Source: Bdellovibrio sp.
GTDB lineage: Bacteria; Myxococcota; SpSt-1050
Length of the DNA stretch: 64,000 nt
Direction: 5' to 3'
NCBI GenBank assembly: GCA_020725805.1
Contig: DYEF01000023.1
Span: 20,783 to 84,782, forward strand
Shown here in pieces: positions 1 to 43,225 of the stretch. Made by a program: the position numbers and the translations under genes. Below the pieces are notes generated by a model, which did not search any database, was not told the origin of the DNA, and saw only the letters and a program-made list of their open reading frames with translations. How positions within the stretch are numbered: the stretch's first letter is position 1; each line of letters opens with the position of its first letter.

Positions 1-1202
1 TAGCCAAACTTACCGGCGGCACAAAACTGACGGCAACAGGTATAGCGGTAGGAACGGTCTGGTATATGTCTCCTGAGCAGATCAGAGGTGCAGAACTGGA
101 TGCCAGAAGTGACCTCTACGCACTGGGAATCACCCTTTACGAGGCACTCACCGGACGGGTCCCCTTCAATTCGGAGAGCGATTATGAGGTGAGGAAGAGC
201 CACGTCGAGGTCAACCCGCCATCACCGCTGATGCACGACAGCTCCCTGCCGCAGGCCGCAGAGACGGTCCTCTTAAAAGTCCTCTCAAAAAATCCGGCTG
301 ACAGATATCAGAATGCGCAGGAATTCAAGAAGGCAATCGAATCCATCAGGACATCTCCTCTGGTAATAACACCGGAATATCAGTCTCAGGGGATTCCGAC
401 CGAACAGATACAGAAGAAAAGCAGCAACAAGGGAATTGTTATTGCCCTGATTATCCTGATACTTATCCTCTGTGGCGGAGCGGTCTATTATTTTCTCTTC
501 CACCAGAAGATGCTTGCGCCTCAGGTAAATCCCCTGAGGGCCGAACAGGTTTATATCCCCGCGGGCGAATTTACAATGGGGAGCGAAAAGGGTAAAGACG
601 ACGAAAAGCCCGTGAAGAAAGTCCTTCTATCTGGTTATTACATCGACAAATACGAAGTTACGAATCTTCAGTACCAGAAGTGTGTGGAGGCAAAGATATG
701 CGGTGCACCGCAGGATTTTCTTGTCAACAAATCTCCGTCTGCACCGGTCGTCGGTGTCAGTTACAATGACGCAAAGACATTCTGCGAATGGGCCAAGAAG
801 AGACTCCCGACAGAGGCGGAGTGGGAAAAGGCAGCATCACAGAAGGGAAAAAACACGGAATACCCATGGGGAGACGAAAAACCTGACTGCAAAAGAGCCA
901 ATTTCGTGGAATGTGACCTCAAACTCAAGGAGGTCGGGAGTTTTGTAAGCGGTGCAAGCGGTTACGGCGTAATGGATATGGCCGGCAATGTCGCCGAGTG
1001 GGTTGCCGACTGGTACGACAAGAATGCTTATCTGACCATGAATACCACAAATCCGAAGGGCCCGCTGACCGGTACATACAGGGTTGTGCGCGGCGGTTCG
1101 TTCAAGAGTACATCAATGGATCTGAGAAAGAGTAACCGTATGTATTCATCACCGTCAGAGAGACTTATGACTGTCGGATTCAGATGTGCAAGAAGTGAAT
1201 AG
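1..1202 (+). CDS. Ser/Thr protein kinase, 5'-truncated by the window edge; C-terminal kinase lobe, one TM helix, then an FGE-sulfatase (SUMF1-like) domain
   Basis: ORF 66..1202 runs open back to the window start. Kinase subdomain IX-XI motifs are visible (DLYALGITLYEALTGRVPF), followed by a hydrophobic helix (IVIALIILILILCGGAVYYFLF). The C-terminal region then matches formylglycine-generating-enzyme/sulfatase-modifying-factor motifs (YIPAGEFTMGS, RVVRGGSF, GFRCAR). Confidence 0.8.
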   Translation, partial: AKLTGGTKLTATGIAVGTVWYMSPEQIRGAELDARSDLYALGITLYEALTGRVPFNSESDYEVRKSHVEVNPPSPLMHDSSLPQAAETVLLKVLSKNPADRYQNAQEFKKAIESIRTSPLVITPEYQSQGIPTEQIQKKSSNKGIVIALIILILILCGGAVYYFLFHQKMLAPQVNPLRAEQVYIPAGEFTMGSEKGKDDEKPVKKVLLSGYYIDKYEVTNLQYQKCVEAKICGAPQDFLVNKSPSAPVVGVSYNDAKTFCEWAKKRLPTEAEWEKAASQKGKNTEYPWGDEKPDCKRANFVECDLKLKEVGSFVSGASGYGVMDMAGNVAEWVADWYDKNAYLTMNTTNPKGPLTGTYRVVRGGSFKSTSMDLRKSNRMYSSPSERLMTVGFRCARSE

Positions 1203-1458: not shown

Positions 1459-1506
1459 CTTACCAGTACCCGTCATCCTGATTTTTCAATACAATCAAAT
1501 ATTTTG

Positions 1507-1534
1507 TTGATATTGAGTAAAATGTTTGTATTAT
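1507..1534 (+). promoter_or_regulatory. putative sigma70 promoter for tnaA (TTGATA-16-TATTAT)
   Basis: -35 TTGATA at 1507-1512, a 16 nt spacer, -10 TATTAT at 1529-1534. This lies about 30 nt upstream of the preferred ATG at 1567. Confidence 0.35.
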
Positions 1535-1566
1535 CTCCTCACCTGTATTTTCCAAGGAGTCGTAAA

Positions 1567-2931
1567 ATGTTATTCGAACCCTTCAGAATCAAAATGACCG
1601 AGCCGATAAGAATATTATCAAGGGAAGAACGGGTAAAGAAGATCAAAGAGGCATGTTATAACCTCTTTCTTCTCAGGGCAGAGGACGTAATGATAGACCT
1701 TCTGACAGATTCCGGAACCGGTTCTATGAGTGCAAATCAGTGGTCTGCAATAATGGTGGGTGATGAATCCTATGCCGGAGCAACGAGCTTTTTCAAATTT
1801 GAAGAGACAGTCAGAAAGATTACAGGACTGAAATACATACTGCCGACTCATCAGGGCCGGGCCGCAGAGAGAATACTCTTCGGACTGGTTGCCAGAAAGG
1901 GTATGGTTATCCCGTCCAACACACACTTCGATACCACGAGGGCACTTATAGAATTCAATGAGGCTCTGGCCGTCGACCTTGTTATTGACGAAGGGAAGAA
2001 ACCGTCTGTAAAACACCCGTTCAAGGGGAATATGGACCTGAACAAGCTCGAGGAGACAATAAAAAAATTCGGTCCCGAGAATATTCCGCTCTGTATGATT
2101 ACTATAACAAACAATTCCGGAGGCGGTCAGCCCGTCTCTCTGGAGAATATCAGAGAGACAAAAAGGCTTTTATCGAGATACAAAATCCCTCTGTTTATCG
2201 ACGCCTGCAGGTTCGCCGAAAACGCCTATTTCATCAAGAAGAGGGAGAAGGGTTACGAGAATAAATCGATACTCGAGATAGCCCGTGAGATATTCAGTTA
2301 TGCCGACGGCTGTACAATGAGCGCAAAGAAGGACGGTCTGGTCAACATCGGCGGTTTTCTGGCCCTCAACAACGAGGAACTGGCAATCCGGGCAAAAAAT
2401 ATGCTCATCCTTACCGAAGGATTCCCGACCTACGGGGGTCTTGCGGGGAGAGACCTTGAGGCACTCGCAGTCGGACTGAACGAGGTCTTAGATGAGCAGT
2501 ATCTCTCATACAGAATCGGTCAGGTGGAATACCTCGGGAACAGATTGCTCGAAAAGGGGATACCGATTATCGAGCCGACAGGGGGACACGCAGTATATAT
2601 CGATGCGGGTTCACTCCTTGGTCACATCAAACCCGAGAACTTTCCCGCACAGGCCCTTTCGGTCGAACTCTACATAGAAGGCGGCATAAGGACTGTCGAG
2701 ATAGGTTCTGTAATGTTCGGGAAGAAAGAGGAGTCCGGCAGATTCAAACCCGCTCCCCTAGAGCTTGTCAGGCTCGCAATTCCGAGAAGAGTCTATACGA
2801 TGAGCCATATGGACTACATTGCAGACGTGGCAGGGAGTCTGAAAGAGAGGGCAGAAGAGATCAGGGGATACAGAATTACCTACGAGGCACCGCACCTTAG
2901 GCACTTCACGGCACACTTCGAGCCGGTATGA
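1567..2931 (+). CDS. tnaA: tryptophanase-type beta-eliminating lyase (PLP)
   Basis: Start is moved from the ORF-track 1504 to ATG 1567, which has AAGGAG 8 nt upstream and the N-terminus MLFEPFRIKMTEP typical of TnaA/Tpl. Motifs: IDLLTDSGTG, PTHQGRAAE, GFPTYGGLAGRD (TnaA-like), PLP lysine in TMSAKKDGLVNIGGFLA, and RLAIPRRVYT. Confidence 0.85.
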   Translation: MLFEPFRIKMTEPIRILSREERVKKIKEACYNLFLLRAEDVMIDLLTDSGTGSMSANQWSAIMVGDESYAGATSFFKFEETVRKITGLKYILPTHQGRAAERILFGLVARKGMVIPSNTHFDTTRALIEFNEALAVDLVIDEGKKPSVKHPFKGNMDLNKLEETIKKFGPENIPLCMITITNNSGGGQPVSLENIRETKRLLSRYKIPLFIDACRFAENAYFIKKREKGYENKSILEIAREIFSYADGCTMSAKKDGLVNIGGFLALNNEELAIRAKNMLILTEGFPTYGGLAGRDLEALAVGLNEVLDEQYLSYRIGQVEYLGNRLLEKGIPIIEPTGGHAVYIDAGSLLGHIKPENFPAQALSVELYIEGGIRTVEIGSVMFGKKEESGRFKPAPLELVRLAIPRRVYTMSHMDYIADVAGSLKERAEEIRGYRITYEAPHLRHFTAHFEPV

Positions 2932-36050: not shown

Positions 36051-38375
36051 TTATTCTGTTGCACAGCTGTTGCTGTCGGGTACACAGAGATTTACCCCGT
36101 TTACATCCTTACAGGTGAATTTTTCGGGGCAGGCTCCCGGGACTTTCGGGTCACAGGAAGCGAGGCAGAACATATCTGCTCCGCTGTCAGGTACCTTTAC
36201 ACATCTGTTGGGCGGATTCGGATTGTTATAATCCGGATTGCCGCTGTTGCAATATGCATCCTCAAAGCAGGGTACGCACAAAAGTTCGGTCATAGGAATG
36301 CATATACCCTGATACAGGGCACCAAGTCCGAGCCAGGATTCATAGCAGGCATAACCTGCCGGACAATCGGCGTTGGTCTTGCAGATGCTGGAGCATTTCC
36401 CGTTGTTGAGACAGAGGTCATTGGCGCAGGGCTTATCAATGCAGGCCTCGTGACAGACCTCGTCTGTCGAACAGGCAACGCAATCACCATTGAAGCCCGC
36501 TCCTCCCTCTGTCGGGGCAGAACAGAATGAATAGACCTTATTTGCCTTCGTATCAAATCCGTACATCTTGCAGACTTCGCCGTTGGAGCAGTCCTTGTCT
36601 CCGTTGCACTCCTTGCCGGAACCGGAGAAAGGAATACAGAGGTTTGTCTGATTTACAGTGTCATAACCCTCTGAAAGCGGCTGAGGCATACATTTCCAGG
36701 TATAATTACCGGCCTTACCATAATCGCAGTCTGCACCGATATTGTCACAGGCGCCGGAGCAGTATCCTACTCTCAGACAGAGATTTGTCGAACAGGAGAA
36801 AGATGCCTGGCACTGCTGCCCGGGTTTGCTGGCCCCTGAATATTCCTTTGCACAGATCGAAACGGTATTGTCATCATATGTTTCGGGTCTGGAATAGTCG
36901 TCATTGTCCTCGTTGCCAAAGATAAGTTTGCAGATTTCTCCCGAGACCTTGCAGTCTGACGGCTTTTCACACTTGGTCGGCTTATCTCCCTGATAAACGG
37001 TCGGCATACAGATGCCCATATAAACCACCGTACAGCCCGCCTGGTCGAGGCTCATTCCCACATCACGGCATACTCCCTTAAAGCCGTCGCCGTAATTGCA
37101 GGTGCAGTCCTGGTCAGTGCAGTTGACATTTGCCACACACTTGTTGTTGAGACACTTGAGACTGCAGCACTCACCGTCCACGGTACAGGTCTGGTCGACC
37201 TTCTTGCAGTTGGGATGACAGAATGAGGCACACTTTCCTTCGAGGCAGAAGAGAGAGCAGCAATCGTCGTCTTCGGTACAGTCCTCGCCTGCCTTCTTCC
37301 CGCCTTTTGAGAGCTCACAGGTCTCGCCGCACTTGGTATTCAGTCCAAGGATGGACTGACCGGTTTTGTCAAGAGTAAAGCCCATCTGGCATTTCTGATT
37401 ATCTGAGCAGGTATTATCACCGTAGCAGTCGGGTCTGAAACGGTTCGGGAAGCAGGATGAACAATACTTCTTCTCGACAACCACTTTGGTTTTGGTATCA
37501 TAGGTCTTGAAGAGATTACAACTCATATCTCCCACACAGTCATCATCTTTTTCACACTCCTTATCGTCCTTTACATAACAGCTCTGGCAGATATTACCTC
37601 CGTGGGCGTTCGAGGAGGCACAGTATTTTTCCTGTGAGTATATACAGTCCCTGTTGTCATTGCAATAATTTACGCATCTGTCTGTCTTCACACACATAGC
37701 CGTTCCGTACTGTGCCGAACTCAGACACTCGTAGCAATTCATCCTGTAACCGCCAACAATGTTGAAGAACTCGGCACAATCAGCAGACTTTTCACACTTC
37801 TTCGAACAGACCGAACCTGACTTGTAAACACCGTTATCATCTCTCTCTCCGACACAATAAGTCTCCCCGGCCTTGCAGGCTACGTTCCCAAGTTTGTCAC
37901 AGGGCTCTCCCGCGCCTCTGTTGAGTGGAGTACAGGCTCCTTCCGTATACATACAAACCTTCTTGGTAGAATCGAGTGAATCATATGTACAGCAGTAATT
38001 CTTCTCTCCGGCAAAGCCTGCACAGTCCGCATCTGTTTCACAGCTCTTTGAACAATAACTGTTCTTTATCTTAGCCGTAATACCGTAGCATAATCCCGAC
38101 GCACAGTTGTCATCGGATGAGCAGAGTTCACCGTTATTTTTAAGCGGCTTCTTACAGGTCTTGCTTGTAGGGTTACATTCCAGCCCCTCACAGCAGTCCT
38201 CTGTCTTTTCACACTTCTGGTTGAGGGCTGAACATTGCGGTCCGGTATCGCCGGTACCGGTAGTGTCCGTTGGTGCAGCATCCTTACTCCCGCCGTTCCC
38301 ATCATCCGAGGAACATGCATTCAGCAATGCTACCGAAAGAATAATTCCTAAAATCACCAAAAACTTCTTCATCAA
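36051..38375 (-). CDS. cysteine-rich secreted lipoprotein (774 aa) built from knottin-like Cys repeats
   Basis: Lipobox MMKKFLVILGIILSVALLNACSSDD. Cys pattern units such as C-x6-C-x5-CC-x4-C-x6-C (CSALNQKCEKTEDCCEGLECNPTSKTC, CTEDDDCCSLFCLEGKC, CTVDGECCSLKCLNNKC) recur throughout. Confidence 0.7.
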   Translation of the reverse strand: MMKKFLVILGIILSVALLNACSSDDGNGGSKDAAPTDTTGTGDTGPQCSALNQKCEKTEDCCEGLECNPTSKTCKKPLKNNGELCSSDDNCASGLCYGITAKIKNSYCSKSCETDADCAGFAGEKNYCCTYDSLDSTKKVCMYTEGACTPLNRGAGEPCDKLGNVACKAGETYCVGERDDNGVYKSGSVCSKKCEKSADCAEFFNIVGGYRMNCYECLSSAQYGTAMCVKTDRCVNYCNDNRDCIYSQEKYCASSNAHGGNICQSCYVKDDKECEKDDDCVGDMSCNLFKTYDTKTKVVVEKKYCSSCFPNRFRPDCYGDNTCSDNQKCQMGFTLDKTGQSILGLNTKCGETCELSKGGKKAGEDCTEDDDCCSLFCLEGKCASFCHPNCKKVDQTCTVDGECCSLKCLNNKCVANVNCTDQDCTCNYGDGFKGVCRDVGMSLDQAGCTVVYMGICMPTVYQGDKPTKCEKPSDCKVSGEICKLIFGNEDNDDYSRPETYDDNTVSICAKEYSGASKPGQQCQASFSCSTNLCLRVGYCSGACDNIGADCDYGKAGNYTWKCMPQPLSEGYDTVNQTNLCIPFSGSGKECNGDKDCSNGEVCKMYGFDTKANKVYSFCSAPTEGGAGFNGDCVACSTDEVCHEACIDKPCANDLCLNNGKCSSICKTNADCPAGYACYESWLGLGALYQGICIPMTELLCVPCFEDAYCNSGNPDYNNPNPPNRCVKVPDSGADMFCLASCDPKVPGACPEKFTCKDVNGVNLCVPDSNSCATE

Positions 38376-38645: not shown

Positions 38646-38674
38646 TTGACTTAAATTTACATTTTTACTAATAT
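38646..38674 (+). promoter_or_regulatory. putative sigma70 promoter TTGACT-17-TAATAT for the tandem TPL-like gene
   Basis: -35 TTGACT at 38646-38651, a 17 nt spacer, -10 TAATAT at 38669-38674, about 46 nt upstream of the ATG at 38721. Confidence 0.45.
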
Positions 38675-38720
38675 CCTCCCGTTTTGAAAGATTAACCTTT
38701 TTTCAGGAAAGGAACAGAAT

Positions 38721-41378
38721 ATGCTTATTCACGAACCTTACAAGATCAAATCAGTCAGAAATATTCCATTCACCACCTATAATGAGAGAAAGAGAATCCT
38801 GAGAGAGCATTTTTACAATACAACGTTAATTCCCGCCGATAAAGTAACATTCGATATGGCCACACAGGGAACATCTGCAATGTCTCAGGAACAGGTAGCC
38901 GCACTCTTTGTTGGAGATGAGGCCTATGCAGGGGCTGTAAATTTCTATCATCTGGAGAATGCAGTAAGAGATGTCTTCGGACTTAAAAACATATGCCCCA
39001 CACACAACAGATTCGGTAACATTAAGCTGCTGACCTCGATCATGGTCAAAAGCGGAAAATCGGCCTTCTCGAACATAAGACAGCCAAAGGAAATAGTCGA
39101 ATACTACAAGGGCCGCTTCGTCCAGATATCCTCAAGGGAGGAGAACGGTTTCTCTATACTGGATGTGTCAGAGGTCAAAAAAGCAAAGAAAGACGAGACC
39201 GCCTACATATTCATAGACCTGAGAAGCGATGAGGGGAGACCGGTCTGCCCGTCCTGCCTTAATGAGATTGCACATTTTTCGAAAGACTCGGGTATCCCGC
39301 TGATTATCGACTGTTCGAACATCGTCCTCTGGGCAAACAGGGTAAAGAATGTCGCAAAAGACTATTCATCGAAGAGAATCTCCGAAATTATTAAGGAGGT
39401 CTCCGCTCTCGCAACAACTGTGGCATTCGACGCCGGACAGGATGCGATGAGTAATGTCGGAGGATTTCTTGCAACAAACGACCCGAAGCATCACGAGGCC
39501 CATCAGAACGAAGTCGTAATATATGAGGGGCTGCACACCTACGGAGGTATGGCCGGAAGGACAATGGAAGTAGTCGCTGTCGGGCTGAGGGATATGACCG
39601 ATGAAAACAATGCAGTTTGGTACCAGCAGCAGATCGACCTCTTATCGGAAATTCTCTCCAAAGAGAGAGTACCTCACTATAAGGGACTGGACGGCGTATA
39701 CCTCTGTGCGGACAAGTTCCTCAGCCACCTCAGGGAGAACAGGACCCACACACTGGCAACTGCAATCTATCTGAAATCCGGGGTAAGGGCATATCTTGGA
39801 GGCAGATATATACCGTCCGAGATTCTGCCCGTTCAGATTCCGAGAAGGGCACTTTTAAACAGACAGGTCGTTCAGATCGCAGAGGCAATATGCGAACTCT
39901 TCAGAGAGGCCGCTCAGATACCGGCGCTCGTTCTGACCAACAGACCCGAATATCACAACGAGGCTGTATTCGACTGGCTCATACCGGTTATCAGGCCTTA
40001 CGAATTCGAATGCGAACCTTATACGGTCCACGCAATCGAGAAGATTGCAATGAAGAGCGTGGAGGAGAGACGAAAGGCGGCAGAAGAGGCAGGTTACAAT
40101 ACATTTCTCCTTAAAATGGAGGATGTGACAATCGACCTGCTCACAGACTCCGGAACGGCAGCTATGAGTGTAGAGCAGTGGAAGGCTTACCTCGGCGCCA
40201 TAGAGACACCAAACACATCTGATGCCTATATCGACCTTGTCAGAACCGCACAGAAGGTATACGGTTACAAACATATTATCCTTACCCATCAGGGCAGAGC
40301 AGCAGAACACATAATGTCCCAGATGTTTATCAGACCGGGTGACTACGTGCCCGGCAATATGTACTTCACGACCACCAAGCAGCATCAGGAGATGGCAGGC
40401 GGAATTTTCGTGGACGTAATCGTCGATGAGGCAAACGATACAGACTCAGACTTCGAATGGAAGGGAAATGTGGACCTGAAAAAACTCTCGGACCTCTACG
40501 ATAAGGCAAAATCCGAAGGCAAAAAGCTTGCATACATCTCATTCGAATTCAATGTAAATCTTGCAGGCGGACAACCGGTCTCGATGGACAATATGAAGGA
40601 GGTCTATGAATTCTGCAAACCGAGAGGAATCCCGGTATTCTTCGATGCGACGAGATGCTCTGAAAATGCGATATTCATCAAGCAGAGGGACCCGAGATAC
40701 AGGGATGCAAGCATCGGGGATATACTTCTCGAGATGTTCAGTTACGGCGACGGTGCCACCATTTCAGCCAAAAAGGATATGCTCACAAACCTCTCGGGAG
40801 CACTCCTCTTCAGGGATAACGAAGAGTGGTACAGAGAGGCTCTCAGGATGCTGCAGATATTCGAAGGAGGTCATTCAAGCGGCGGTACATCTGCAGGAGA
40901 TATGGCAACACACGCACAGGGATTGAGAGAGATGGTCGATGAAAGATATCTCAAGGCAAGGGTCGAACAGGCGAGATATCTGGGCAAACTCCTGATCGAT
41001 GCGGGTATTCCGATTGTAATGCCTCCGGGAGGCCATGCGGTATTCCTCGATGCGAAGAAATTCCTCCCTCACCTCGACCAGGACCAGTTTCCGGCACAGA
41101 CGCTCGCGGCACACATATTTATCGAGACCGGAGTCCGGGCAATGGAGAGGGGAAACGTAAGCAAGGGAAGGGACCCGAAGACGGGAAAGAATTACAGACC
41201 CAAACTCGAGCTCGTTAGACTTACAATACCCAGAAGGGTATACTCACTCGACCATATGAAGGCTGTTGCAGAGGGAATCATCAGACTATACAGGAAGCGC
41301 GATTCCATAAGGGGACTCGAATTTACATACGAACCGAAGGCACTCAGATTCTTCCAGTCCAGATTCAGACTCATTTGA
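38721..41378 (+). CDS. tandem-fused beta-eliminating lyase (tyrosine phenol-lyase-like), degenerate N-terminal copy plus intact C-terminal copy (885 aa)
   Basis: The C-terminal half carries TPL-like blocks (ILTHQGRAAEH, PGNMYFTTT, NVNLAGGQPVSM, PLP lysine in TISAKKDMLTNLSGALL, IRGLEFTYEPKALRFF). The N-terminal half aligns to the same fold (GDEAYAGAVNFYHLENAVRDVFG), but the lysine position reads FDAGQDAMSNVGGFLA and the PTHQGRAAE motif is PTHNRFGN. Confidence 0.8.
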   Translation: MLIHEPYKIKSVRNIPFTTYNERKRILREHFYNTTLIPADKVTFDMATQGTSAMSQEQVAALFVGDEAYAGAVNFYHLENAVRDVFGLKNICPTHNRFGNIKLLTSIMVKSGKSAFSNIRQPKEIVEYYKGRFVQISSREENGFSILDVSEVKKAKKDETAYIFIDLRSDEGRPVCPSCLNEIAHFSKDSGIPLIIDCSNIVLWANRVKNVAKDYSSKRISEIIKEVSALATTVAFDAGQDAMSNVGGFLATNDPKHHEAHQNEVVIYEGLHTYGGMAGRTMEVVAVGLRDMTDENNAVWYQQQIDLLSEILSKERVPHYKGLDGVYLCADKFLSHLRENRTHTLATAIYLKSGVRAYLGGRYIPSEILPVQIPRRALLNRQVVQIAEAICELFREAAQIPALVLTNRPEYHNEAVFDWLIPVIRPYEFECEPYTVHAIEKIAMKSVEERRKAAEEAGYNTFLLKMEDVTIDLLTDSGTAAMSVEQWKAYLGAIETPNTSDAYIDLVRTAQKVYGYKHIILTHQGRAAEHIMSQMFIRPGDYVPGNMYFTTTKQHQEMAGGIFVDVIVDEANDTDSDFEWKGNVDLKKLSDLYDKAKSEGKKLAYISFEFNVNLAGGQPVSMDNMKEVYEFCKPRGIPVFFDATRCSENAIFIKQRDPRYRDASIGDILLEMFSYGDGATISAKKDMLTNLSGALLFRDNEEWYREALRMLQIFEGGHSSGGTSAGDMATHAQGLREMVDERYLKARVEQARYLGKLLIDAGIPIVMPPGGHAVFLDAKKFLPHLDQDQFPAQTLAAHIFIETGVRAMERGNVSKGRDPKTGKNYRPKLELVRLTIPRRVYSLDHMKAVAEGIIRLYRKRDSIRGLEFTYEPKALRFFQSRFRLI

Positions 41379-41626
41379 GAGTCAGTCTTATTACGGATTT
41401 CTGTATATACATAGAGTTGCTTGCCGGTAAAATGCTCTGCAACAAAGTCCTTACAGGCTATTCAGCCGGTTTTCGCAAACTGTGCATTGTAAAATTCGTA
41501 TACTTAATTTTTTATTGACACCGAAATGAATAATGGTAGTATTAGCCCGTTAACTTTATATTTTTTTGAGTAATGATGAGCATTTTTCTGAATTTAATTA
41601 ATAATTTTATTACGAAGGGAGCAGAG

Positions 41627-43225
41627 ATGAACAAGGCAAGATTTTTTGTGCTTTTTCTGGGAATTTTTATCTTTACAGGACTTCTTGTCAGCTGTGTAAG
41701 TGACAAGGAGGCAAGCAAATTCGTGGAGAAACTCGAGAAGAAACCGGGAGAAGGGAAACCTGCGTCATACTGGGTTAAAAAGCTGACCGATGTTCAGCTC
41801 AAACCGGATGCCGTAAAAGCACTTATGGAACTCAAGGACAAGAGCGTTATTCCGCAGCTCACGGAACTCTTCAAAAAGGACAGGTCGCTCAGAGCCGACA
41901 TTGCCGAGATTCTCGGTATGCTCGGAGAGAAGAGCACAGCCCCTGTACTTCTTGAAGGACTGGTCTTCGAGGTTTCCAACAATATTCAGGAACAGAGAGA
42001 GAATGACAGAATCAACGAGAAGATTCTCGGCGCCCTCGCTGCTATGCAGGAAGAGTCGGCAAAGCCGGCCGTAATCAAGCTTCTCTCATCCACCTCTGCA
42101 CCGGTTCTCGCCGCCGCAGTCAGGGCCGAAAAGGTCTTCAAGGATAAAAACGCCGTCGACGCCCTCATTGCAATTATCAGGAATGACAATCTTTCAAAGG
42201 CTATAAGGGCCGATGCAATTTATGTTCTGGGTGAAATCGGCGACCCGAAGGCCGTTCCTGCACTCGTCAGGGCAATGTACATCGAGAGACAGGGTACCGT
42301 TTACCCTGAGGCAAACGAGGCACTTCAGAAAATCGGCAAAGCCGCCGTTCCTGAACTCGTAAAGACATTTCTGGGTAAGAATGAAGAGGTCAGGCAGCTC
42401 GCCGAAAAATCCAACTTCGTCGTAGGTGCAATCGAGGGGAAGGCCGCAGAGACACTCGGCGACATCTGTGACCTCTCTGCAGAGGACGCACTCTTAAAGA
42501 TGGTTAAATCGGACGAGGACAATCCCATTGCCAAATCCAAGGCCGCCTTTGCGCTCGGAAGGATGCAGTCCAAGAAGGCAGCACCCGTTATGGCAAAACT
42601 TGCAGAAGATGAAGAAGACCCCTCGGTAAGGGCCCATTACCTCCTTGCAATAAATCTCATCGGTGATACTTCCGTTATACCGTCACTCGTGAAGGGTGCA
42701 AAAAAGCCGGACCTCGACAAGTATAAGAAGGAAGGGGCAACACAGCAGGAACTCGACATCCTCAGAAAAGGAAGGGAAGAGGTAGTAAAGACAATAGCAA
42801 GGCTCGCCACCGACAAGGATGCAGCTCATTACGATAAGGTTATGAAGGAAGAGAAGAATCCGGAAATCAGCAAGGTAATAAAGGAATATTCCGTGATGAT
42901 CGATGTCGCAAAGGAATGCAAGGGTGATTTTGCCTGTTACAAAGGAAAGCTCTCCGACACAAACAAGGTTGTAAGAGAGAAGGCCGCATATATGATCGGA
43001 AGAATAGATTCTGAAGAGGCGGTCAATACCCTGATAGACCTGCTCGGGACAGAGAAGGACAACGATGTAAAATTTGCTGTCCTGCAGGGCCTGTTCAATT
43101 TCTCGGGCAAATATTACAAGACAATGCTGCCGAAGATCGAGGCAAAGGTAGCTGAGCTCAAGGATGATATTCTCAAAAACGACCTGAACAGACTTCTGCT
43201 CAGATTAAAAAGCTTGAACAGATAG
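41627..43225 (+). CDS. HEAT-repeat (PBS-lyase-type) lipoprotein
   Basis: Start set at MNKARFFVLFLGIFIFTGLLVSC (ATG 41627, lipobox). Repeated AxxALGxIGDPxAVPAL-type units. Confidence 0.7.
   Translation: MNKARFFVLFLGIFIFTGLLVSCVSDKEASKFVEKLEKKPGEGKPASYWVKKLTDVQLKPDAVKALMELKDKSVIPQLTELFKKDRSLRADIAEILGMLGEKSTAPVLLEGLVFEVSNNIQEQRENDRINEKILGALAAMQEESAKPAVIKLLSSTSAPVLAAAVRAEKVFKDKNAVDALIAIIRNDNLSKAIRADAIYVLGEIGDPKAVPALVRAMYIERQGTVYPEANEALQKIGKAAVPELVKTFLGKNEEVRQLAEKSNFVVGAIEGKAAETLGDICDLSAEDALLKMVKSDEDNPIAKSKAAFALGRMQSKKAAPVMAKLAEDEEDPSVRAHYLLAINLIGDTSVIPSLVKGAKKPDLDKYKKEGATQQELDILRKGREEVVKTIARLATDKDAAHYDKVMKEEKNPEISKVIKEYSVMIDVAKECKGDFACYKGKLSDTNKVVREKAAYMIGRIDSEEAVNTLIDLLGTEKDNDVKFAVLQGLFNFSGKYYKTMLPKIEAKVAELKDDILKNDLNRLLLRLKSLNR

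Follow-up and report, generated by a model that had tools for sequence, protein, structure and literature searches.

The window, i.e., the 64,000-nt stretch of Bdellovibrio sp. DNA analyzed here, carries a gene for a tandem protein of the tyrosine phenol-lyase (TPL) type, in which two related lyase folds are joined in one open reading frame (ORF) (Table 1). We refer to the two folds as the N-copy and the C-copy. They have lost complementary parts of the TPL active site, and together they would probably form a single composite site. An earlier sequence-only reading of this DNA had proposed one 885-aa ORF with two beta-eliminating-lyase folds, and the ORF call, the domain search, the alignment of the two halves, and the matches to TPL structures bear this out. 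The protein contains two Beta_elim_lyase (PF01212) stretches (293 bits at a Pfam cutoff of 27). PF01212 is the only Pfam family reported for it, and membership of the alpha-oxoamine synthase or aminotransferase class I-II families was not found. Residues 1-430 and 431-885 align with each other end to end in BLASTP at 27% identity (E=3e-40). Both halves match solved TPL structures, the C-half with E=4e-158 and 53-54% identity and the N-half with E=2e-52.

The fused protein passes the TPL equivalog TIGR02618 (tyr_phenol_ly, EC 4.1.99.2) with 836.1 bits at a cutoff of 720.7, and the best-scoring stretch, aa 432-882, is the C-copy. It falls below both tryptophanase equivalogs, with 575 against 825.8 bits for TIGR02617 and 610 against 750 for NF053783. 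Asp137, Ile396, and His463 of tryptophanase (TnaA, E. coli numbering) are replaced by Thr, Arg, and Phe in the C-copy. From the equivalog score and from the presence of Arg381, Thr124, and Phe448 instead of the tryptophanase Ile, Asp, and His, the C-copy is, by its sequence, of the TPL type. NCBI lists an identical protein that has no name, and its relatives are labeled "tryptophanase," "tyrosine phenol-lyase," or "beta-eliminating lyase-related protein, partial."

Table 1 Position of the tandem gene, its parts, and other genes discussed in the text
Feature	Position	Strand	Remarks
Tandem tyrosine-phenol-lyase gene	38721..41378	+	ATG start, 885 aa, TGA stop, 0 internal stops
Promoter-like TTGACT-17-TAATAT	38646..38674	+	Upstream of the ORF; plausible, unproven
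Shine-Dalgarno-like AGGAAAGGA	38705..38713	+	7 nt before the ATG; read from the sequence
N-copy (aa 1-408)	38721..39944	+	TPL fold without PLP site; donor of the trans loops
N-copy trans loop 1, GDEAYAG (aa 65-71)	38913..38933	+	Glu67 = TPL Glu69; Tyr69 = TPL Tyr71 (general acid); invariant in 81/81
N-copy degenerate phosphate-binding motif, PTHNRFGN	38997..39020	+	Gln98 is Asn; Gly99 and Arg100 replaced
N-copy former PLP-lysine block, FDAGQDAMSNVGG	39426..39464	+	Asp237 = Ser254; Gly239 = Lys256; Gln240 = Lys257
N-copy trans loop 2, EGLHTYGGMAGRTME	39525..39569	+	Tyr274 = TPL Tyr291 = E. coli TnaA Tyr307; Arg280 = Arg297
Remodeled N-copy C-terminal tail and inter-copy linker (aa 409-431), PEYHNEAVFDWLIPVIRPYEFEC	39945..40013	+	No stop or ribosome-binding site
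C-copy (aa 432-885)	40014..41375	+	TPL fold; PLP and substrate site complete (family 65-66/66); trans loops lost
C-copy degenerate trans loop 1, GAIETPNT	40194..40217	+	Pro497 at Tyr71; family P32, A17, T5, Q4, others
C-copy PLP-phosphate motif, LTHQGRAAE	40281..40307	+	Gln524-Gly525-Arg526 = Gln98-Gly99-Arg100; 66/66
C-copy PLP-lysine block, ISAKKDMLTNLSG	40761..40799	+	Contains ISAKKD; Ser682 = Ser254; Lys685 = Lys257; 66/66
C-copy degenerate trans loop 2, FEGGHSSGGTSAGDM	40860..40904	+	Ser720 at Tyr291, Gly726 at Arg297; family at Tyr291 D48/N10/S8
C-copy TPL specificity block, GVRAMERG	41130..41153	+	Met808 = Met379 (65/66); Arg810 = Arg381 (66/66)
C-copy C-terminal LRFFQSRF	41343..41366	+	Phe877/Phe878 = Phe448/Phe449; 65/66
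HEAT/PBS-lyase-repeat protein	41573..43225	+	550 aa
Cys-rich predicted lipoprotein	36051..38375	-	774 aa
Single-domain beta-eliminating lyase	1504..2931	+	ATG at 1567
Ser/Thr kinase/FGE-sulfatase ORF	66..1202	+	378 aa; first ATG at 66

Residues of both halves are numbered as in Erwinia/Citrobacter TPL, and chain numbers of the 885-aa protein are given where its own residues are meant. We call residues that a TPL subunit contributes to its own site cis and those that it donates to the site of its partner trans. In E. coli TnaA, Tyr74 and Tyr307 form hydrogen bonds with the pyridoxal 5'-phosphate (PLP) phosphate of the neighboring subunit, and the activity of the Y74F variant is negligible (PMC2770544). 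In P. vulgaris tryptophan indole-lyase (TIL), Tyr72* is the proton donor and is supplied by the other chain of the catalytic dimer (PMC11301627). Pairwise alignment places Tyr74, Tyr307, and Lys270 of E. coli TnaA at Tyr71, Tyr291, and Lys257 of TPL. Hence, the residues kept by the N-copy are those donated in trans, and the residues kept by the C-copy are those used in cis.

The C-copy of the window protein retains 18 of 18 cis positions (PLP, substrate, and TPL-specificity residues) and 2 of 6 trans positions. The PLP lysine and the phosphate and pyridine ligands are present as Lys685, Gln524-Gly525-Arg526, Ser682, and Asp642. The TPL-specific residues Thr124, Met379, Arg381, and Phe448/449, at which TnaA has Asp, Val, Ile, and His, correspond to Thr550, Met808, Arg810, and Phe877/878. 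What is gone from the C-copy are the partner-donated residues, with Tyr71 replaced by Pro497, Tyr291 by Ser720, and Arg297 by Gly726. The canonical TPL feature that every subunit has Tyr71 and Tyr291 is therefore absent from the single fold unit and present in the chain as a whole. Lacking both trans loops, the C-copy, judged by these residues, cannot be active alone or as a C:C dimer.

The N-copy of the window protein retains 2 of 18 cis positions and 5 of 6 trans positions. Lys257 is replaced by Gln240, Lys256 by Gly, Ser254 by Asp, and Gln98-Gly99-Arg100 by Asn-Arg-Phe. Phe123-Thr124 and Asn185 are replaced, Arg217 is Asn, Arg381 is replaced or deleted, Arg404 is Pro, and Phe448/449 are deleted, so that Asp214 is the only PLP, phosphate, or pyridine ligand left. 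The kept loops GDEAYAG and EGLHTYGGMAGRTME bear the general-acid Tyr and the second Tyr that touches the PLP phosphate of the partner, according to the residue mapping to TnaA and TIL. The EGLHTYGGMAGRTME block is near-invariant, with 13 of 15 positions invariant among 20 N-copies.

These comparisons agree with the sequence-only reading in that the C-copy has the PLP lysine in SAKKD and the TPL signature blocks, that the lysine is gone from the N-copy, and that the N-copy has PTHNRFGN where canonical enzymes have PTHQGRG. That reading also held that the N-copy keeps fold-level blocks. They are indeed kept, but GDEAYAG and EGLHTYGGMAGRTME are interface loops of the catalytic dimer and not plain fold blocks. 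At the five positions which it had singled out (Lys257, Tyr71, Arg381, Asp214, and Phe448), N-copies keep Tyr71 and mostly Asp214, and C-copies keep all but Tyr71.

The pattern holds across the family. The sample consists of the best 80 loci of at least 593 related stretches, found by scanning GTDB species genomes with an N-copy alignment, together with the window; after MAFFT alignment with a TPL reference, conservation was counted in 81 N-copies and 66 C-copies. Tyr71 is present in 81/81 N-copies and 0/66 C-copies (Pro, Ala, Thr, Gln, and others), and Tyr291 likewise in 81/81 and 0/66 (Asp, Asn, or Ser). Glu69 is found in 81/81 N-copies and in 14/66 C-copies. Val283, Glu286, Gly287, Leu288, His289, Thr290, Gly296, and Arg297 are each present in all 81 N-copies, so that every tabulated position of the EGLHTYGGMAGRTME block is invariant; in C-copies, the position of Arg297 is mostly Ala, Gly, or Ser.

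The cis residues behave the other way round. Lys257 is found in 66/66 C-copies and 0/81 N-copies (Gln in 77, His in 3, Glu in 1). Gln98, Ser254, and Arg404 are kept in all 66 C-copies and are replaced in N-copies by Asn (81/81), Asp (80/81), and Pro (74/81), respectively. Gly99, Arg100, Phe123, Thr124, and Arg381, each 66/66 in C-copies, are mostly replaced in N-copies. Asn185, Met379, Phe448, and Phe449 are each kept in 65/66 C-copies and replaced or deleted in N-copies. Asp214 and Arg217 are the mildest cases, with 69/81 and 63/81 in N-copies and 66/66 each in C-copies. An unbiased scan covered the 202 positions that are at least 95% conserved in single-domain TPLs. C-copies keep 132 of them and N-copies 59, and the 30 positions that N-copies alone retain cluster at 67-80, at 280-300, and in the N-terminal arm at 6-11. 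The degeneration is thus reciprocal: the N-copy keeps the trans-donated residues, and the C-copy keeps the cis residues.

We also considered a catalytic lysine shifted by an indel to position +3, as many N-copies read QDPK there. This candidate was rejected because the position is variable (K, R, M, or I) and is Met in the window protein.

The fusion itself is general. The C-copy follows the N-copy directly in 80 of 80 species genomes, and a two-gene version was found at none of the 80 loci examined. Complete, uninterrupted tandem ORFs are present at 62 loci, and the others are cut by contig ends or have obvious frameshifts. The loci belong to about nine phyla, namely, Myxococcota/"Deltaproteobacteria," Bacteroidota, Gemmatimonadota, Acidobacteriota, Planctomycetota, Eisenbacteria, KSB1, Elusimicrobiota, and Gammaproteobacteria. 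In an exhaustive phmmer search of 1.84 billion cluster representatives, about 11 proved to be tandem proteins of full length (847-928 aa). In 50 of 52 family members, the N-copy IPRR and the C-copy EP[YF] motifs are 56 residues apart, and therefore the length and geometry of the junction are constrained.

Each half is of single origin, as the 81 N-copies and the 66 C-copies each form a single clade in a neighbor-joining tree (81/81 and 66/66). The pairwise identities among N-copies follow those among the matching C-copies (Spearman 0.87). Single clades together with this co-divergence fit one ancient fusion that was inherited as a unit. The N-half has evolved faster (mean identity 0.53 vs. 0.68 for the C-half), and its proportion of changed nonsynonymous sites, pN, is 0.14-0.23 vs. 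a synonymous proportion, pS, of 0.53-0.92. The dN/dS ratio is 0.16 for the N-half and 0.07 for the C-half, values that come only from the pair L034/L049, synonymous sites being saturated in five of six close pairs. Both halves, the "dead" N-half included, are under purifying selection.

AlphaFold2 (AF2) modeling of the 885-residue chain with a 35-sequence alignment gave a compact model with a mean predicted local distance difference test score (pLDDT) of 80.9 and a predicted TM-score (pTM) of 0.72. In a Foldseek search of the PDB, which matches single chains only, a single TPL chain covers one half with a query-normalized TM-score of about 0.44. The pTM lies well above this value, which implies that the two halves are confidently arranged relative to each other in the model. 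The tandem architecture was absent from the PDB matches listed.

Taking the residue pattern and its conservation together, we consider it likely that the protein is a single-chain pseudo-heterodimeric TPL with one composite active site made of the cis part of the C-copy and the trans part of the N-copy. The two folds, connected by a short linker of fixed length, would pack like the subunits of the TPL/TnaA catalytic dimer. Lys685 of the C-copy would form the Schiff base with PLP, Gln524-Gly525-Arg526 and Ser682 would bind its phosphate, and Asp642 would pair with the pyridine N1. Asn613, Arg645, and Arg833 are predicted to bind the substrate carboxylate, and Thr550, Met808, Arg810, and Phe877/878 should form a phenol pocket of the TPL and not the tryptophanase kind. 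From the N-copy, Tyr69 would be the general acid and protonate the leaving ring at the C-copy site, and Tyr274 and Arg280 would complete that site in trans. Glu67 of the N-copy presumably is a K+ ligand in trans. The mirror-image site, built from N-copy cis and C-copy trans residues, appears destroyed from both sides. Each 98-kDa chain would then hold one PLP and convert L-tyrosine to phenol, pyruvate, and NH4+ at its single composite site. As the N-terminal arm is conserved, a pair of chains probably makes up a pseudo-tetramer, which would have two sites where the TPL tetramer has four.

The sequence-only reading had pictured a fused dead/live pair that enforces an asymmetric pseudo-dimer with one functional site. 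The residue statistics, the universal fusion, and the co-divergence of the halves support the asymmetric pair and its one site, but the "live" copy is itself incomplete, and the loss is reciprocal.

Several points weigh against the composite-site model or limit it. The pTM of 0.72 is silent on which interface joins the halves, and an inter-chain domain swap, with the N-copy of one chain serving the C-copy of another, would give identical residue statistics. The assignment of TPL activity draws on homology and specificity residues. Reciprocity is imperfect at some positions, as Glu69 is still found in 14/66 C-copies and in the C-copy of the window protein. Trans loop 288-290 reads Leu-His-Thr where the enterobacterial enzymes have Met-Pro-Ser; Leu-His-Thr is shared by single-domain TPL-like relatives. 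Finally, a conserved operon around the tandem gene was not found, with no neighbor family occurring at more than 6 of the 81 loci.

The fused ORF might be a sequencing or assembly artefact or a recent, pseudogenizing read-through of adjacent genes. All 41 tandem matches of our first protein search, made with the N-half against a 90%-clustered protein database, are fragments, and single-base frameshifts interrupt the tandem gene in several assemblies (L013, L016, L060, L070, L077, and L082). These 41 come from several phyla and are all contig-truncated pieces of the same N-copy-then-C-copy order, and the frameshifted loci resume the normal junction sequence in another frame. The one apparent split-gene homologue (P0019/L082) was discarded, as a 1-nt frameshift within the conserved WRDQM motif accounts for its break. 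The junction of the window gene has neither the stop nor the ribosome-binding site that a joined pair of genes would be expected to show. With 62 intact ORFs from independent assemblies across about nine phyla, closed chromosomes of metagenome-assembled genomes included, about 11 full-length 50%-identity cluster representatives, a near-invariant junction length, and a reciprocal residue loss that an artefact could not produce, we regard this explanation as practically negligible. The fragment entries and the assembly frameshifts have a different consequence: because of them, annotations systematically give members of the family, wrongly, as "partial" or as two genes. A second possibility is that the N-copy is inert, a scaffold or solubility domain, and that catalysis takes place in conventional inter-chain C:C dimers. 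The C-copy has all cis residues and passes the TPL equivalog threshold on its own, and the N-copy is without the PLP lysine. Both sites of such a dimer, however, would be without Tyr71, Tyr291, and Arg297, either Tyr being found in none of 66 C-copies, and the TnaA variant equivalent to the first of these losses, Y74F, is nearly inactive. Moreover, an inert scaffold would not hold exactly two trans loops invariant in 81/81 N-copies across about nine phyla. We therefore rate it as very unlikely.

Two further readings leave the donation of trans residues or the composite site in place. The old pocket of the N-copy could have been repurposed as a regulatory or ligand site, or filled by a phosphate-mimicking plug, making the N-copy a built-in regulatory subunit. 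The replacements in this pocket are themselves conserved (Asn98 and Ser216 in 81/81, Asp254 in 80/81, Gln257 in 77/81, Pro404 in 74/81, and Asp185 in 69/81), Asp214 is kept in 69/81 N-copies, and the dN/dS of the N-half is low. The same conservation may equally reflect the packing of a PLP-free pocket, the substrate-side positions 123, 124, 379, and 381 vary among N-copies, and no data point to any ligand, which leaves this role doubtful. Alternatively, the composite site may be real and act on a substrate other than L-tyrosine, such as another aromatic or an S-substituted amino acid. C-copies form a clade of their own, about 53% identical to characterized TPLs; their partner loop 288-290 departs from the enterobacterial enzymes; a distant tandem clade has clearly non-TPL specificity residues; and a TnaA-type enzyme is already encoded in the same genome region. 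Against this stand Thr124, Met379, Arg381, and Phe448/449, kept in 65-66 of 66 C-copies of the window clade, the score above the curated TPL equivalog cutoff, and the occurrence of the Leu-His-Thr-Tyr loop in single-domain TPL-annotated relatives. A different substrate is thus unlikely in the window clade.

More distant tandem proteins extend the composite-site model in time. We compared the full-length representatives of the phmmer search and the window protein, 12 tandem proteins in all. The N-copy trans residues are kept in 12/12, and the C-copy Tyr291 is lost in 12/12. The number of cis residues left in the N-copy rises from 2/18 in the window clade to 11-13/18 in a distant clade (P0130, P0131, and P0133), which suggests that the 12 sequences form a degeneration series. 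From this we infer that the asymmetry began with the loss of the C-copy trans tyrosines, that this disabled the N-site, and that the PLP residues of the N-copy then decayed. A more ambitious version would have the tandem lyases be both a stepwise record of the passage from a symmetric homo-oligomer to an obligate asymmetric chain and a case in which the degenerate N-pocket took on a new, conserved allosteric or effector role gating the single site; that both hold at once seems improbable.

The distant tandem lyases P0130, P0131, P0133, and P0139 have 864-909 aa and are 33-38% identical to the window protein. Their N-copies keep Gln-Gly-Arg, Ser254, Lys256, Lys257, and Arg404 in P0130, P0131, and P0133, and little of this in P0139. 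In the C-copies of all four, Tyr291 is lost, Thr124 is replaced by Phe, Ile, or Val, and Phe448/449 by Ala-Thr, Ser-Thr, or Phe-Ile, which are non-TPL residues. This clade may represent an intermediate in evolution or an enzyme of another kind. An exception outside the window clade is P0127 (847 aa), whose N-copy has a Lys at the Lys257 equivalent (DATKD), yet Ser254 is Asp and Gln98 is Asn. Beta-eliminating-lyase domains also occur inside much larger multidomain proteins, P0236 (1036 aa), P0159 (1552 aa), and P0172 (3002 aa); P0236 seems, by eye, to run on into an acyl-/AMP-ligase-like region. Presumably, all three are assembly-line or fusion enzymes that have nothing to do with the tandem architecture.

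Upstream of the tandem gene, the sequence-only reading had marked a near-consensus promoter. The hexamers are present as described, but they match the consensus at 9/12 positions, and promoter-like sites are not in excess in the region (7 vs. 5.6 +/- 2.0 in shuffled sequence), i.e., their number is at chance level.

The single-domain gene which that reading had called tnaA is real and of the TnaA type, with Asp, Ile, and His at TPL positions 124, 381, and 448, corresponding to TnaA Asp137, Ile396, and His463. Its product passes only the broad PRK13238 subfamily model and lies below both the TnaA and the TPL equivalog cutoffs. The organism probably makes both indole and phenol.

The Cys-rich predicted lipoprotein encoded upstream of the tandem gene has a signal peptide followed by Cys, many CxxC-like repeats, and no Pfam match; three loci, including the window and L001, have a homologue at this place upstream of the tandem gene. 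Immediately downstream lies the gene for the HEAT/PBS-lyase-repeat protein with a lipoprotein-like N-terminal signal, which was not found as a conserved neighbor of the tandem gene in other genomes. No functional link emerged from these two flanking genes of the window. In the Bacteroidales loci L007, L008, and L019 and related ones, sequence reading gives neighbors that resemble an aminotransferase, an ADP-forming acetyl-CoA-synthetase-like protein, a 2-oxoacid:ferredoxin oxidoreductase subunit, and an Lrp/AsnC-type regulator. They would fit amino-acid catabolism, though each occurs in at most 6 loci. At the start of the window, an ORF encodes the C-terminal part of a Ser/Thr kinase, a transmembrane segment, and an FGE-sulfatase (formylglycine-generating-enzyme-like) domain. 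As it matches only positions 164-256 of the 263 of the kinase model, the start of the gene probably lies upstream of the window.

In the textbook picture, a fold-type I PLP enzyme is a symmetric dimer or tetramer, with subunits that share their sites at an interface. The tandem family appears to be a single-chain version of natural origin that is both ancient and widespread, with at least 80 species in about nine phyla, and in which owning a site and completing that of the partner are divided between the halves. It is a clear case for the study of how duplication, fusion, and complementary degeneration make a homo-oligomer obligately asymmetric, and related tandem proteins appear to hold intermediate stages. 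Because cis and trans residues can be mutated separately in one polypeptide, half-of-the-sites questions in TPL and TnaA become directly testable. TPL is used for the synthesis of L-DOPA and tyrosine analogues, and a single-chain scaffold with separately engineerable cis and trans halves could serve biocatalysis. For annotation, the architecture has gone unrecognized, and a count based on domains would give too many active sites. The family also points to the formation of phenol from tyrosine in Myxococcota, Gemmatimonadota, Acidobacteriota, Bacteroidota, and other environmental lineages. An earlier description of a tandem TPL or a tandem beta-eliminating lyase was not found in the open-access full-text literature.

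Canonical TPL (EC 4.1.99.2; Citrobacter freundii and Erwinia herbicola; PDB 2TPL, 1C7G, and 2EZ1) has the same fold as the tandem protein and is 53-54% identical to the C-copy, with agreement at 18/18 cis positions. Its trans residues are also present in the tandem protein, but on the other copy, and the predicted chemistry is alike. Canonical TPL is a homotetramer of identical subunits of about 456 aa (about 51 kDa) with four PLP, whereas the protein described here is an 885-aa chain whose two copies are 27% identical and have the PLP lysine in only one. Each canonical subunit owns a site and donates Tyr71 and Tyr291; each tandem copy performs one of these roles, and half of the sites are gone. 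Tryptophanase (TnaA; PDB 2OQX and 1AX4) belongs to the same family and follows the same catalytic-dimer logic, with Tyr74 and Tyr307 reaching across the interface. Unlike it, the tandem protein stays below the TnaA equivalog cutoff and has Thr, Arg, and Phe for Asp137, Ile396, and His463. By sequence, it is a member of the TPL clade, and its chemistry is probably ordinary, but it is without the self-sufficient, symmetric subunits of canonical TPL.

Serine palmitoyltransferase (SPT) offers the closest functional analogue. There, LCB1, which is without the PLP lysine, pairs with LCB2 and is needed for the single active site at the interface. As proposed for the tandem lyase, a dead and a live paralogue of fold-type I PLP enzymes make one site, although the likeness is functional and not one of family homology: SPT belongs to the aminotransferase class I/II family, catalyzes a Claisen condensation, is membrane-associated, and is eukaryotic or viral, whereas the tandem lyase is a bacterial, soluble, beta-eliminating enzyme of PF01212. 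In the account of PMC5371807, which cites Han et al. 2006, most E. huxleyi viruses (coccolithoviruses) encode both SPT subunits in a single fused gene. A feature of the tandem lyase set against SPT is that its "live" copy has reciprocally lost trans residues, as documented family-wide. A dead paralogue that is indispensable for the live one is also described for the trypanosomatid S-adenosylmethionine decarboxylase (AdoMetDC)-prozyme heterodimer (PMC5201418). In that system, separate polypeptides form a pyruvoyl enzyme, and the dead partner relieves autoinhibition; in the tandem lyase, one chain with PLP would achieve its dependence through the donation of residues.

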